Source: Escherichia phage CL1
Reading direction: 5' to 3' (one strand)
DNA length: 64,000 bases
Sequence record: OK040806
In this document: positions 23,194-34,653 of the stretch, piece after piece
How positions within the stretch are numbered: the stretch's first letter is position 1
Layout: the number at the start of each line of letters is the position of its first letter
Notes under the pieces: generated by a model
The model's input: the letters and a program-made list of their open reading frames with translations, nothing else
The model's database searches: none
What the model was told of the DNA's origin: nothing
Program-made: the position numbers and the translations under genes

Positions 23194-23216
23194 AGGCTCC
23201 TTCGGGAGCCTTTTTC
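23194..23216 (+). terminator. intrinsic terminator
   Basis: GGCTCC-TTCG-GGAGCC hairpin then TTTTT. Confidence 0.6.
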
Positions 23217-23234
23217 ATTTCAGGAGATTGTTAA

Positions 23235-23582
23235 ATGACATTTAAAGAGTTCTGTCAAGCTACTTTCATAATTGTTTTCTTAGTTGGGGCAGGTGTCTGG
23301 GGAGGATACTCTTACAGAGACTACCAAGTTGCTGAAGCTGAGCTAAATAATGAGAAACTAATAAGTGTTGCCAAAGATGCTTATCAGGAAGGTTTAGCCA
23401 CACTCAGCACCAATTACAAAAATGATTTGAAAGATGTGCTTGCTAAGAATAAGCATACAAAAGAGGTACTAACATATGAAAAAACTAAGCCAGAGTTTTA
23501 TAATGTTTGTGTTACTGATAACTATGTCAGGGTGTTCAACGAACAAAGTGAACAGTACATTCAAAAACTCCCAAGTAAGTGA
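23235..23582 (+). CDS. membrane protein with N-terminal TM helix (i-spanin-like)
   Basis: TM segment ATFIIVFLVGAGVWGG followed by charged helical region. Confidence 0.35.
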   Translation: MTFKEFCQATFIIVFLVGAGVWGGYSYRDYQVAEAELNNEKLISVAKDAYQEGLATLSTNYKNDLKDVLAKNKHTKEVLTYEKTKPEFYNVCVTDNYVRVFNEQSEQYIQKLPSK

Positions 23583-25446: not shown

Positions 25447-26232
25447 ATGGGTATTGTGAAAATCATCAATGGTGATATCTTTGCAGCATTTGATAAAGGT
25501 AAGTTTGATGTCATCGGTCACGGTTGCAACTGTATGAACTTAATGGGTGCAGGTATCGCTGACAAGATTTCTAAACTTTACCCAAAAGCATATGAGACTG
25601 ATACAGAAGTTTATCTGTATGCAGGTGGCATAGGCCACAAGCCCTGTGAGAATTTACTAGGCAATTTCTCTGTAGCACGTTTAAAACAAGGTCGTATAGC
25701 TAACCTTTACACTCAGCTTAAGACTGGTAAAGATGCCCGATACAGTGCTTTAGAGTCATCTTTGAAACAACTTAACAGATACTGTGAAGTAAATCAGTTG
25801 AAGAAAGTTGGCTTGCCTATGATTGGTGCAGGTATCGGTGGGCTAGACCCTCAAGCCGTCACAGTTATCATTAATCAGGTGATGAAGAGTGTAGATGTGT
25901 ATCTGTATGTCTACGAGACAAAGATGTACAACGAGTTACACTCAGGTTGGAAGAACTACTGCGAACCAGAATACTTTGCAGGTGTAGTAACGTTCACAGA
26001 CAATACAGTTACCCTCTTCAGACGAAGAAAAGGTAAGATACATCAAAGTAACCCTCCGGTTGAGAAGATGTCTCTAAGTAACGCTCTAGTTACCCACCTG
26101 TCGAAGAGCAATCACAGGATAGCTGTAACATTTGGTAGTGATGCAGATACATATATCTATGCAAGAACTGATGAGGATATCGAGACGGTCTTCTCTTCAC
26201 CAGAAGTTACCTTTTTAGGCGCAAAGAACTAA
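25447..26232 (+). CDS. macro-domain-like protein (putative ADP-ribose binding/hydrolase) with C-terminal extension
   Basis: INGDIF..DVIGHGCNCMNLMGAGIA and VGLPMIGAGIGGLDP resemble the two conserved macro-domain glycine-rich motifs. Confidence 0.45.
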   Translation: MGIVKIINGDIFAAFDKGKFDVIGHGCNCMNLMGAGIADKISKLYPKAYETDTEVYLYAGGIGHKPCENLLGNFSVARLKQGRIANLYTQLKTGKDARYSALESSLKQLNRYCEVNQLKKVGLPMIGAGIGGLDPQAVTVIINQVMKSVDVYLYVYETKMYNELHSGWKNYCEPEYFAGVVTFTDNTVTLFRRRKGKIHQSNPPVEKMSLSNALVTHLSKSNHRIAVTFGSDADTYIYARTDEDIETVFSSPEVTFLGAKN

Positions 26233-26304
26233 GAAAATCTGTATAATATTCACAATAGACTAAGCCTTTCTTATCTGGTAAATTTTTTCAGGTAAGGAGG
26301 GCTT

Positions 26305-26500
26305 TTTTTATTTCAAGATTGTGCAGGTAGAGTTCTGTAGAGAAATCTGTAGAGAGAATTTTGAACTCCAAAGAGAAAATTCATTTTCAAACTGTGCAGG
26401 TAATCTCCAAAGAGCTTTTTCATTTTCAAAACGTGCAGACCCCGCTCAGGTCGGGCAAGAAAAATCATTTTAGAATTGTGCAGGTAGGTGGGTGCAGGTG
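26305..26500. repeat. degenerate direct repeats TTTCAA(A)NTGTGCAGGTA (4 copies) plus tandem duplication of a ~38-bp unit
   Basis: Copies near 26315, 26383, 26423, 26471; unit CTCCAAAGAG..CATTTTCAAA..GTGCAG repeated at 26368-26445; no credible coding frame. Confidence 0.5.
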
Positions 26501-26662
26501 GGAATGTCGCCATTTCTCACAAGGCTACCACATCTGGAAATAAAAGTCAACAGAAAAATTTGTAGCGGATTGAAAAATAATTCTTGATTGTAGTTCTGTT
26601 TTGTGGTAGTCGCGCGCACCCGTTTCATTACAATTTTGCAAAAAATATTTTTAAAATTCCTA

Positions 26663-26691
26663 TTGACTCTTTGAGTATGGTTATCTAATAT
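26663..26691 (+). promoter_or_regulatory. sigma70-like promoter (TTGACT-N17-TAATAT) for the small-ORF array
   Basis: TTGACT 26663-26668, TAATAT 26686-26691, about 50 nt upstream of ATG 26742. Confidence 0.55.
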
Positions 26692-26741
26692 TTGCATCAG
26701 ACGGGCAAGCCAGCCCACTTCCTAAACTGGAGAATCTAAAA

Positions 26742-26948
26742 ATGCTTTACAGTCGCGAATTGATGGTTACAACTAACGTTAACACAGGTGTAAAACGTTT
26801 CTACATGCAAATCTGCGGCGTATGGTCCAGAATATCAGAAGATGACTATTGCAACTATGTAGGAACGGCTATTAATTCTAATTGCTATCTGACAAGAAAC
26901 ACTAAGAAATTTACAAGGCAGACAGCGATTTACTACTACGACAAATAA
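26742..26948 (+). CDS. array ORF 1, hypothetical (68 aa)
   Basis: ATG preceded by conserved CTAAACTGGAGAATCTAAAA. Confidence 0.5.
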   Translation: MLYSRELMVTTNVNTGVKRFYMQICGVWSRISEDDYCNYVGTAINSNCYLTRNTKKFTRQTAIYYYDK

Positions 26949-27036
26949 AGTACTTTACAGGGGGCTTAAAAGCTGATATCTTAAGCCCCAGATAAAGAGC
27001 TTTACTAAATTAACCCTTAAACTAGGAGATTCAAAA
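26949..27036 (+). repeat. type A intergenic cassette (copy 1, variant)
   Basis: GGGGCTTAA..TTAAGCCCC hairpin + AGATAAAGAGCTTTAC + CTAGGAGATTCAAAA leader. Confidence 0.6.
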
Positions 27037-27417: not shown

Positions 27418-27505
27418 TAAAGTACTTTACAAGGGGCTTATAGTTCGATAAAGTAAGCCCCAGATAAAGAGCTTTACCACTAAATCCTAAATTGGAGATT
27501 CAAAA
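27418..27505 (+). repeat. type A intergenic cassette (copy 2)
   Basis: TTTACA-N17-TAAAGT promoter-like element overlapping hairpin GGGGCTTATAGTTCGATAAAGTAAGCCCC, then AGATAAAGAGCTTTAC and conserved leader. Confidence 0.6.
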
Positions 27506-27763: not shown

Positions 27764-27852
27764 TAAAGTACTTTACAAGGGGCTTATAGTTCGATAAAGT
27801 AAGCCCCAGATAAAGAGCTTTACTAACTAAATCCTAAACTGGAGATTCTAAA
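27764..27852 (+). repeat. type A intergenic cassette (copy 3)
   Basis: Near-identical to copy 2. Confidence 0.6.
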
Positions 27853-33011: not shown

Positions 33012-33049
33012 TCGACGCAGCGGGGCTAAATAGCCCCAGATACCTTTAC

Positions 33050-33071
33050 AGCCCCTTAAATGGGCTTTTTT
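33050..33071 (+). terminator. intrinsic terminator ending the plus-strand array
   Basis: AGCCC-CTTAAAT-GGGCT then TTTTTT; preceded by GGGGCTAAATAGCCCC hairpin. Confidence 0.55.
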
Positions 33072-34650
33072 ACGTCTTATTAAATCCTTTCCCTTTCCTT
33101 TCCAGAATCTTACTAGACCTTAAAAGCAATAACTCTATAGTCTACTCTATAGCCTTTTATCAAATCAACTTAAATATAAGCCCATAACCCGAAAGGGAAG
33201 GGCAACCATTTAAACGCTCTATAAAGCCCTATAACAGCCTTATCAACCTAACTTAAGGGATTGCATTACTCCACGCTTAAAAGCTCTTTATAAAGCTTCT
33301 CAGAGCCTTAAAAGAATCTTATAAGGGTGTAAGCTTTATCATCTCGTTAGTATCTTGTGAATAACTAAAAAGGGCTTGTTAGTGTCTTAAAAGTATGTTA
33401 TAGGGGCTATAAAGTTGCTTAAAAGTTGCTATAAAGTTACGTAAATGCTAGCCCCCTTAACATTTTCTTAACAAATTTTTAACAATCCCTACATAGTTAT
33501 GCTTTTAAGGCACTTGTTAACAACTTGTTAGCCCCTTGTTAAATCTCTGTTAAGACCACGTAAAAGCCTTGTAAGAGTCTTTGACATAGCCTTAAAAGCT
33601 CCTGTAAAGCCCTATAAAGAGCTTTCTATATAGTTGGGGTGCAATTACTAGGGAGAGGCTTAAAAGAGCTTACAAAGAGCTATAGAGAGCTTTTAAGAGG
33701 GCTATTTAAAGGGTCACTAAGAGGGAAAGGGAACTATAGACCAAGAGATAGTGACCATGTTAATAGCTTGTTAAAAAGATTAAACACTTGTTAGGAACTT
33801 GTTAATTATCTTAACAAAATAACTCTTAAAAATTAACTTGTTAGCTCTTGTTAGTCATCTGTTAAGACTCTGTAAAGCCTACGTATCAACTGTTAAAAAA
33901 CTGTTAAGCTCTTGTTAGTTCTGTTAAGAATCTGTTAAGACCTCTGAAGAGATGTTAAGAAGATGTAGCAACTGTTAAGAGATTGTTAATGATATTTTAA
34001 AATTTTGCAAAGGGGATGTTACAGGGATGTTAAGGGCTACCAAGCAGATATATATCTTCTACAGATATTTTTGAGTTCCTTCAAAGACCCTAAAAAATGA
34101 CTTGATAGCTCTATTTTATAAAAATTTTAAAATTCTGAATAATTACCTAGACAGTCTTTTAAAAATACAGGTAGAAACAGGCTTATAAGATACCTTGTTA
34201 GTACCGTGTTAGACCTTGTGAGATAAGGTCTGTAAAGATATTCCTGTTAAGTTTGCTAAAACAGTCTATATAGAGGCTTAGTATTTCCTAGTGAACACCT
34301 ATAGAGAGTGTCATAGCTGACATAGAGATTAAGAGGTGTATAGGAGCTTCTAAGAGGGTATAGAGGGATGGTTAAGGTGATTGTATAGGTTGTTAAGAAG
34401 GCTTGTTAGAAGAGTGTTTAAAGGGCTTGTTAGAGGGTTATTTAGAAGGCTTATACAGAGGGGCTATTAAGACCACTAGATAGTGACTAAGATACTATAT
34501 AGTACTATATAACTATATAGAGAGTAAGATTAAGAAGGTTGTTAAGAAGGGTAGATATTTTATTCACATATGATGGTGACCCAGAGGTTGGGACAACCGA
34601 TGAAATTTTATAAAAATTAAAAAGCCCCCAATTAAGGAGGCTCTTAAGAT
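33072..34650. repeat. 1.6-kb ORF-free AT-rich region densely packed with short direct repeats (TGTTAAG/CTTGTTAG family, TATAAAG/TTAAAAG words)
   Basis: More than 25 copies of NTGTTAA/G, clustered 33500-34020 and 34190-34560; palindromes near 34044 and 34490-34520; sits between converging plus and minus gene blocks. Confidence 0.6.
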
Positions 34651-34653
34651 ATT

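Follow-up and report, generated by a model that had tools for sequence, protein, structure and literature searches.

Positions 26233-26741 of the window, by which we mean the whole 64,000-nucleotide stretch of Escherichia phage CL1 DNA analysed here (record OK040806), hold an array of four direct repeats, or iterons, which is a real cis-acting element, conserved, under selection and previously unannotated. It occurs once per genome, its conservation across the group of Felix O1-like phages is established, and the pattern of that conservation makes it probably a protein-binding site. As to its function, we tentatively favour a replication origin of the redundant type known from oriE of phage T4, a reading to which we would give somewhat less than an even chance, with control of transcription as a close rival.

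The window is that of a Felixounavirus, subfamily Ounavirinae, i.e. a Felix O1-like phage: over 26100-26900 it shares 99.9% identity with Escherichia phage C600M2, and 222 phage records match this stretch by megablast. The 509-bp interval is exactly the gap between a macro-domain gene, the last of an operon running from rIIA to the macro gene, and the first of many small open reading frames (ORFs) on the plus strand, an early small-ORF array that extends to the right physical end of the genome. In reverse-transcription polymerase chain reaction (RT-PCR) measurements on Felix O1, several genes of this small-ORF array peak at 5 min, and the upstream genes 1, 3, 4, 6 and 10 at 25 min (PMC3185647 Table 3). 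Given these peaks, the gap divides a later operon from an early array, and represents a composite non-coding boundary between the delayed-early or middle operon (rIIA to macro) and the small ORFs. Its elements follow one another in the order terminator, iterons, a spacer with two alleles, a 48-bp AT-rich block, a purine-pyrimidine tract, a sigma-70 promoter, a leader hairpin and a ribosome-binding site. Block by block, conservation is 0.96-1.00 for the cores of iterons 2-4, the boxes, the AT-rich block and the -35 hexamer, and 0.58-0.87 for the spacers, the promoter spacer and the hairpin sequence. When the gap was compared with the genome by short-word self-BLAST, only the translation-start cassette common to other array genes recurred.

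Sequence and conservation of the iteron array

The iteron unit spans about 37-45 bp and consists, in this order, of a purine-rich box (CTCCAAAGAG or a variant), five A/T bases, the motif TCATTTY-N6-GTGCAG and lineage-specific 3' bases (GT..), with all copies in one orientation (Table 1). In the window, the start-to-start distances between the GTGCAG motifs are 73, 39 and 45 bp. A preliminary description of the region, made from the letters alone, had reported four degenerate copies of TTTCAA(A)NTGTGCAGGTA, a duplicated unit of about 38 bp, a doubled CTGTAGAGA, the GC-rich island GTCGCGCGCACCCG and a promoter TTGACT-N17-TAATAT, and all of these are where it had put them. Namely, the four copies lie at 26311-29, 26385-402, 26424-41 (a degenerate one, ending in ...GTGCAGAC) and 26469-86, with an extra, partial fifth copy GTGCAGGTGGG at 26492-26502, while the duplicated unit is formed by 26366-26399 and 26405-26438, which are 82% identical, and has a third copy at 26450-83.

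The repeats far exceed what chance would give. When 28 distinct iterons, all of them from other phages, were made into a weight matrix, it hit the window in four places only, which lie on the plus strand inside 184 bp; the runner-up site in the 64 kb scores 14.9 bits and the best of 50 shuffles 15.8 bits, against 24.7 bits for the weakest of the four. The motif does not occur elsewhere in the 88-kb C600M2 genome. What is more, the cores and boxes of the iterons are conserved at 0.96-1.00, as opposed to 0.65-0.87 for the spacers between them. In particular, the values are 1.00 for the box and 0.99 for the core of iteron 2 and 0.99 for the core of iteron 3; iteron 1 is present in all lineages, and the segment of iteron 4 still aligns by blastn to Erwinia phages. 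TCATTT-N7-GTGC is invariant throughout all lineages compared. We infer that the iterons are putative sites for a sequence-specific DNA-binding protein, and a two-domain or dimeric reader would fit, since the invariant TCATTT and GTGC are approximately one helical turn apart. The CTGTAGAGA pair between iterons 1 and 2 is conserved at 0.96 within Felixounavirus and more loosely in Mooglevirus; in Si3 and finno it is retained as a TCTGTAnAG pair.

The same succession of terminator, four iterons, C-rich tract and promoter follows the macro gene in Felix O1, SUSP2 (Suspvirus), Moogle (Mooglevirus) and Erwinia phage phiEa21-4. Between the E. coli and the Erwinia phages, whose macro proteins are 37% identical, blastn aligns the iteron segment only, and the downstream ORFs are unrelated between lineages in which the iterons persist. 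Yersinia phage P778, with a large terminase 71% identical, has a homologous gap with four 39-nt direct repeats spaced 67, 47 and 47 bp. A count of four is kept in five lineages, while some Felixounaviruses, namely finno and Si3, carry three. The 3' flank of the iterons is GTGCAGGT (AGGT) in Felixounavirus, Suspvirus and Mooglevirus, GTGCATAG (ATAG) in Erwinia phiEa21-4 and GTGCTCTG (TCTG) in Yersinia P778, and within a lineage all copies share the change in this flank, as they do in the upstream box, which is the pattern expected of a binding protein and its sites evolving together. In three genera, iteron 4 and the -35 hexamer are separated by a constant 176-180 bp or so, despite unrelated spacer alleles of equal length.

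The array block is present in 291 phage records, compared with 299 that hold a related large terminase. A search of IMG/VR with a two-iteron pattern gave 31 contigs, most of them 84-94 kb and three 51-73 kb long, the majority of which had already been retrieved as Ounavirinae loci. No relatives of the array were found among 72,556 plasmids, 596 Gb of bacterial genomes gave only single scattered matches to the iteron pattern, and no such repeats follow the macro genes of more distant phages. By these searches, the iteron repeat is found only in the Felix O1-like phage group. On the whole, the view in the preliminary description that a non-coding control region rich in repeats precedes the small ORFs holds, in that the repeats show a conservation footprint of the protein-binding type and the promoter is conserved; and the comparison with homologous regions that it had proposed finds the array conserved throughout the subfamily, out to Erwinia and Yersinia phages. 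It had missed this breadth of conservation, as well as the terminator, the leader hairpin and the possibility of a replication origin.

Other direct repeats are listed in the genome paper of Felix O1, which calls temporal regulation unknown, and the wV8 paper mentions no repeats. In literature searches on Felix O1 or Ounavirinae together with origin or iteron, we found no published account of the array and no link to an origin in the Ounavirinae. As far as the searched literature shows, therefore, the array is undescribed, although elements of its kind (iterons, terminator, early promoter) are familiar. The Felix O1-like group is a classic choice for typing and biocontrol, and the searched papers define neither its replication origin nor the control of its early genes. 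In this respect, the array offers a precise, testable cis-element valid for the whole group, which could serve as a probe for the binding protein and as a candidate origin for assays; it is also a site to avoid or to exploit in phage engineering, insertions there being tolerated by phage Bas63.

A few database entries call for comment. In P778 (locus L105, 5400-5620), a lone AATTGTTGCAGGTA stands upstream of the GTGCTCTG-type iterons and resembles the 3' half of a Felix-type iteron; an earlier type of iteron may have left it behind. Two records, MG065664.1 ('Campylobacter phage A132') and GU169904.1 ('Staphylococcus phage SA1'), include the region as well (94% and 87% identical, respectively) and are probably contaminated or chimeric.

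Table 1. Features of the gap and of the genes on either side of it (window coordinates)
Feature	Position	Strand	Sequence and basis
Macro-domain ('phosphatase', Tk.4-like) gene	25447-26232	+	ORF list; Pfam Macro E=1e-7; phrog_335; annotated in C600M2 and Barry
Rho-independent terminator	26262-26309	+	stem AAGCCTTTCTTATCTG / CAGGTAAGGAGGGCTT, then T7; annotated in phage Barry
Iteron 1	26303-26329 (core 26308-26326)	+	TTTTTTTATTTCAAGATTGTGCAGGTA; repeat search; weight matrix 24.7 bits (hit at 26303)
Doubled CTGTAGAGA, 12 bp apart, between iterons 1 and 2	26335-43, 26347-55	+	repeat search
Box CTCCAAAGAG and iteron 2	26366-26402 (core 26381-26399)	+	AAAATTCATTTTCAAACTGTGCAGGTA; weight matrix 35.3 bits (hit at 26376)
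Box CTCCAAAGAG and iteron 3	26405-26441 (core 26420-26438)	+	CTTTTTCATTTTCAAAACGTGCAGACC; weight matrix 34.4 bits (hit at 26415)
Box variant GTCGGGCAAG and iteron 4	26450-26486 (core 26465-26483)	+	AAAAATCATTTTAGAATTGTGCAGGTA; weight matrix 31.0 bits (hit at 26460)
Variable spacer of fixed length	26487-26541		alignment; block conservation 0.65-0.75
Near-invariant 48-bp AT-rich block	26542-26589		AAAAGTCAACAGAAAAATTTGTAGCGGATTGAAAAATAATTCTTGATT; 0.97-0.99 conserved across three genera
Alternating purine-pyrimidine GC-rich tract	26609-26622		GTCGCGCGCACCCG; alignment
AT-rich tract, UP element-like, abutting the -35 hexamer	26633-26662	+	ATTTTGCAAAAAATATTTTTAAAATTCCTA; core AAAAATATTTTTAAAA conserved
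Sigma-70-type early promoter	26663-26691	+	TTGACT-17-TAATAT; consensus scan; same site in Moogle and phiEa21-4
Leader hairpin	26703-26716	+	GGGC-AAGCCA-GCCC; 8-10 nt past the inferred transcript start
Shine-Dalgarno GGAG and first small ORF	26729-26948 (GGAG 26729-32; ORF 26742-26948)	+	68 aa; phrog_5293

Replication origin or control of transcription as possible functions

If the array is a replication origin, the iterons and the AT-rich block would act together as a nucleoprotein site of the origin type, the strong early transcription alongside would help to open or prime it, and it would be one of several initiation routes, hence individually dispensable, as with the origins of T4. Phages of this size often have redundant initiation routes.

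Several features speak for such an origin. There is a single iteron cluster per genome, its four repeats share one orientation, as do the three or more direct repeats of about 17-25 bp in iteron origins, and they are followed by GC-rich, AT-rich and GC-rich segments and a strong early promoter. The many other promoters of the small-ORF array are without such repeats, and the iterons are conserved even where the downstream genes are not. The sites are direct, non-palindromic and 165-360 bp from the promoter, and for this reason an origin fits better than an operator. The operator cluster proposed in the preliminary description is not borne out: the repeats, which lack dyad symmetry, lie that far upstream of the -35 hexamer, they occur once per genome despite the many promoters of the small-ORF array, there is no gene for a regulator next to them, and the first ORF does not share their conservation.

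That said, a number of observations weigh against an origin. To begin with, no initiator gene was recognised, the neighbouring ORFs being without a DNA-binding or Rep domain in the subset of proteins scanned, and the replisome is T7-like, with a gp4-type Toprim/DnaB-type primase-helicase. Duplex stability is -1.17 kcal/mol per step for the conserved AT-rich block at 26542-89 and -1.10 for an AT-rich tract at 26640-80; neither is an outlier in this AT-rich genome, and no unwinding element stands out, the least stable 40-mer of the gap standing at -1.10 as compared with a window mean of -1.28 (SD 0.076) and a window extreme of -0.97. Cumulative GC skew tracks gene orientation only and has no inflection at the gap, and AT skew is likewise uninformative, as it goes with the gene strand. 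The iterons of plasmid origins are typically about 22 bp apart, and the spacing of 39-75 bp found here is wider than this norm; what is more, the early promoter points away from the iterons. Finally, PhageMaP barcode insertions in 'gene 96' of Bas63, at offsets +79 to +234 past the macro stop and hence covering iterons 1-3, had fitness values of 0.65, 0.62 and 0.24 on one host sheet and 0.93, 0.83 and 0.65 on the other. Since the annotated ORF is very likely not real, these data in fact report on the iteron array. Insertions among iterons 1-3 are, in other words, neutral, as in a non-essential region, and this makes an origin less likely, although one disrupted iteron out of four need not abolish function; neutrality would agree with redundant initiation but lends an origin no support. 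On these two sheets there is no entry for 'gene 97', to which iteron 4, the spacer and the AT-rich block belong.

The closest likeness is to T4 oriE, which also belongs to a lytic myovirus and where evenly spaced direct repeats stand by an early promoter of the host RNA polymerase, on which the origin depends, the repeats being conserved at a syntenic place, the element individually dispensable and the role of the repeats unproven (PMC3016281). The two differ in that the T4 repeats are 12 nt long, whereas here a core of about 19-25 nt sits in units of 37-45 bp; there is no sequence similarity, genes like repEA and repEB are not adjacent here, and the origin proposed here is a prediction from sequence. 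Iteron origins of plasmids and lambdoid phages form a second point of comparison. RK2 oriV, R6K gamma, P1 oriR and lambda ori have 3-5 sites of about 20 bp in the same orientation, together with AT-rich and GC-rich segments, in a single copy. The array resembles them in its same-orientation sites of about 20 bp, in the AT-rich and GC-rich segments that follow, and in being single in the replicon; it differs in having no gene for an initiator of the Rep, O or DnaA type, no DnaA boxes, no marked unwinding element, and a spacing of about 40 bp instead of about 22 bp.

The close rival to an origin, which we consider possible rather than likely, is control of transcription. Here a regulator of the phage or of the host would bind the iterons and switch the early promoter at 26663 on or off or insulate it, be it through looping or wrapping over the 176-180 bp or so in between, or by blocking read-through from the upstream operon. 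The location at the boundary between 25-min and 5-min genes, directly upstream of the first promoter of the small-ORF array, is in line with this, as is the constant distance between iteron 4 and the -35 hexamer. Neutral insertions suit it equally well, because the small-ORF array that would be controlled is largely dispensable. Moreover, the phage encodes, elsewhere in its genome, an essential 98-aa helix-turn-helix protein of the Cro/C1 type (gene 35 of Bas63, with a fitness of about -1.2), although the gene of a regulator is not next to the array. What also argues against control of transcription is that no site comes closer than 165 bp to the -35 hexamer or is palindromic, that iterons are found at only one of the many promoters of the small-ORF array, and that the genes of that array are not conserved between lineages, whereas the iterons are.

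Coding, RNA and genome-end readings

The gap does not code for protein. None of its seven ORFs survives in SUSP2, Moogle or phiEa21-4, where they run into frameshifts or stops; they have no Shine-Dalgarno sequence or other ribosome-binding site and no Pfam or PHROG match, in agreement with the lack of ribosome-binding sites noted in the preliminary description. The ORFs annotated here in databases (bas63_0096 and bas63_0097 at MZ501086.1 64142-64457, ORF31-34 of AF320576, and gp115 of Moogle) are likewise not conserved as frames. Judging from this lack of conservation, the 'hypothetical proteins' annotated in the gap on both strands are very likely annotation artefacts, and the ORFs that many GenBank records place there are almost certainly not genes.

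Could the gap encode a small RNA or another structured transcript, as had also been proposed? The gap is long, conserved and non-coding, its plus strand folds with a z-score of -1.98, and phiEa21-4 has promoter-like sites on the minus strand (TTGACG-18-TATACT and TTGCCA-17-TAAAAT). We nevertheless hold this to be very unlikely, and the proposal of a small-RNA locus finds no support: there is no Rfam hit inside the gap at E <= 1, the z-score of the minus strand is +0.26, the window, Moogle and P778 do not share those promoter-like sites on the minus strand, the repeats are preceded by a terminator and not by a promoter, with no conserved promoter/terminator pair, and the conserved blocks have no pairing pattern.

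A number of further candidates were tried and rejected. The array is not one of CRISPR repeats, as its repeats are degenerate (71-86% between copies) and its spacers, 12-48 bp long, are conserved across phages. Nor are the iterons promoters, the minus-strand matches within the phiEa21-4 and P778 units not being conserved in the window or in Moogle. By-eye matches to the consensus sequences for sigma-54, sigma-E, CRP, IHF, Fis, DnaA and LexA were partial and lineage-specific. The first ORF of the small-ORF array was discarded as the binding protein because it is not conserved with the iterons.

The position of the array relative to the genome end suggests two further readings. A genome terminus or packaging site (direct terminal repeat, pac) in the gap is, in our estimation, the least probable of all the alternatives discussed. 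It is true that the record of phage KhF1 (KT184313.1) starts and ends in the gap, with a terminal duplication of 377 bp, and that several IMG/VR contigs end there. However, the 608-bp terminal repeat of UAB_Phi87, determined experimentally by sequencing, aligns with 85% identity to 33459-34043, 7 kb away, near which several records end, and a terminal repeat or pac site at the gap was rejected on this ground. In addition, the end copies of KhF1 are only 89.7% identical and differ in their first 134 nt, so that they look like an assembly artefact or a mixed sample rather than true termini. The IMG/VR contigs, for their part, end in a polypyrimidine tract, one of them with Nextera adapter, or are chimeric with E. 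coli mukB/mukE, and these ends look like technical breaks. In the chimeric case (IMGVR_UViG_3300045988_004180; locus L025, 3500-3698), the sequence switches in the spacer between iterons 3 and 4, after GGTCGGG, to 100% E. coli mukB/mukE, most likely a chimeric assembly end.

The homologue of the UAB_Phi87 terminal repeat sits within 33012-34653, a non-coding stretch of 1.64 kb at the end of the small-ORF array, which is probably the packaging and terminus region. YTGTTAR / TGTTAAGA repeats are dense there, 24 of the 53 plus-strand YTGTTAR sites of the window falling at 33-34 kb, and the least stable duplex of the window (about 34511) lies beside it. A connection of the CTGTAGAGA pair with these repeats was rejected, as YTGTTAR clusters at 33-34 kb only.

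With the UAB_Phi87 repeat as the reference for the right end, the iterons are 7.6-7.7 kb, or about 8.6% of the genome, away from it, with only small early ORFs in between. Taken at face value, this would allow the array to be the inner boundary of a terminal segment that enters first, as in T5, or to anchor the genome end to a host structure. The first-step segment of T5 makes up 7.9% of its genome, and a region of conserved non-coding repeats lies at its end (bioRxiv 10.1101/866236). The injection-stop (iss) region of T5 is similar to the array in that conserved non-coding repeats lie about 8% from the end, border small early genes and are better conserved than these; it is dissimilar in extending over 1.2-1.6 kb and containing inverted repeats, palindromes and paired DnaA boxes, where the present array has four direct repeats and none of the T5-kind inverted repeats, palindromes or DnaA boxes. 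Two-step entry is, furthermore, known for no Felix O1-like myovirus, insertions among the iterons are neutral, and the small-ORF array is transcribed towards the end and not inward. We thus take a role in entry or anchoring to be improbable; more remote still is the fuller version, drawn from the analogy with T5, in which the array would bound a first-entering segment of about 7.7 kb in a contractile-tailed phage with staged, T5-like entry or end-anchoring, and the small-ORF array would be its pre-early set.

Elements flanking the iterons

Directly after the macro gene, 26262-26309 forms a rho-independent terminator, with a GC hairpin and T-run whose pairing is kept in relatives, and ends the rIIA-to-macro operon. 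The consensus fold of eight relatives has 13 pairs, two with compensatory changes; the 3' arm is conserved, and the 5' arm varies with pairing kept. A simple scan that found the equivalent hairpin in phiEa21-4 missed that of the window, because its loop is 11 nt long. The T-run merges into the left half of iteron 1. A second terminator (AGGCTCCTTCGGGAGCCT) at 23194-23236 is followed by TTTTTCATTTCAGGAGATTG, a tail that is the same as this left half, and the likeness hints that the iteron unit may have arisen from a cassette of terminator tail and translation start. One could go further and regard the iterons as non-functional relics, i.e. as decayed cassettes of this kind that remained when genes were lost from a region of cassette shuffling: the tail of the other terminator, at 23194-23222, is identical to the iteron's left half (CTTTTTCATTTC), iteron 1 overlaps a real terminator, and homology breakpoints are found at iteron 3 and at the transcript start. 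This, too, is highly improbable, since relics would decay, whereas no bases of the gap are better conserved than the cores, which reach Erwinia and Yersinia phages with a conserved copy number.

Downstream of iteron 4, the window has a G-rich allele of the spacer, which includes the partial fifth iteron copy, while most other lineages, Felix O1, SUSP2 and Moogle among them, have an unrelated polypyrimidine allele of equal length, CCCCTCTCCCCCTCTTACTCCCCCTCCCC. In relatives this allele is a homopyrimidine, near-mirror-repeat tract, CCCCTCTCCCCCTCTTACTCCCCCTCCCCCC (locus L006, 1466-1508, and two further loci). Two IMG/VR contigs stop exactly at ...CTCTTACTCC, and as one of them runs into Nextera adapter there, a failure of sequencing or assembly at the tract is suggested. 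The 48-bp AT-rich block that follows has no second copy in the genome, and its element GTCAAG(A/C)GA recurs in Erwinia and Yersinia relatives (GTCAAGCGA). In the purine-pyrimidine tract, the alternation is kept among relatives though the sequence varies (GTCGTGTGCGCC, GTTGCGTACACGCG, TCGCATACGTGCG). The UP element-like tract at 26633-26662 is the least stable duplex in the gap, and is not an outlier for the window.

The early promoter had been called strong in the preliminary description. Its sequence is present and conserved and heads the small-ORF array, but the match to the hexamers alone (9 of 12 positions) is not above chance, with 50 such sites in 13 kb as opposed to 40 expected. What supports the promoter is, rather, the conserved -35 hexamer (0.99, with 0.91 for the -10 hexamer), the fixed spacing and the constant position before a conserved leader; its form among relatives is TTGAC[TAC]-17-TA[AGC]TAT. 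In its spacing, its conservation in relatives and its placement before the gene, 26663-26691 has the properties of a sigma-70 promoter as read from sequence, and the transcript would start at about 26696-26699. When leader alleles were folded one by one, all eight different ones formed a GC hairpin of 4-8 bp at the same position, the sequence itself being only 0.58-0.60 conserved. The GGAG is placed 9 nt ahead of the ATG of the first ORF, and the translation-start cassette TCCTAAACTGGAGAATCTAAAA is common to this ORF and other genes of the small-ORF array.

Some relatives lack the first small ORF or have another in its place, and homology then breaks off at the transcript start. Compared with five related loci, the 68-aa ORF and its leader (26692-26948) behave as a swappable cassette, and in several relatives the promoter is joined to another leader hairpin and directly to a homologue of the second ORF. 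Early-promoter/stem-loop cassettes (PeSL) between small early genes of T4-type phages were reportedly described by Arbiol et al. in 2010. The promoter, leader hairpin and translation-start cassette at 26663-26741 are like these, as are the hairpin-bearing gaps of the small-ORF array and the breakpoints at the transcript start; the likeness covers the promoter-proximal third of the gap, and PeSL cassettes contain nothing that corresponds to the iterons or the AT-rich block. As for the gaps of about 88 bp within the small-ORF array (26949-27036, 27418-27505, 27764-27852 and later ones), they contain a promoter-like site, TTTACA-17-TAAAGT/TATCTT, overlapping a long hairpin (CTTTACAGGGGGCTTAA...TTAAGCCCCAGATAAAG), as well as the common translation-start cassette, and correspond to the 57-bp repeats reported for Felix O1. 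In their makeup, they resemble the shuffling cassettes of promoter and stem-loop in T4-type phages or the RNase III sites in the early region of T7.

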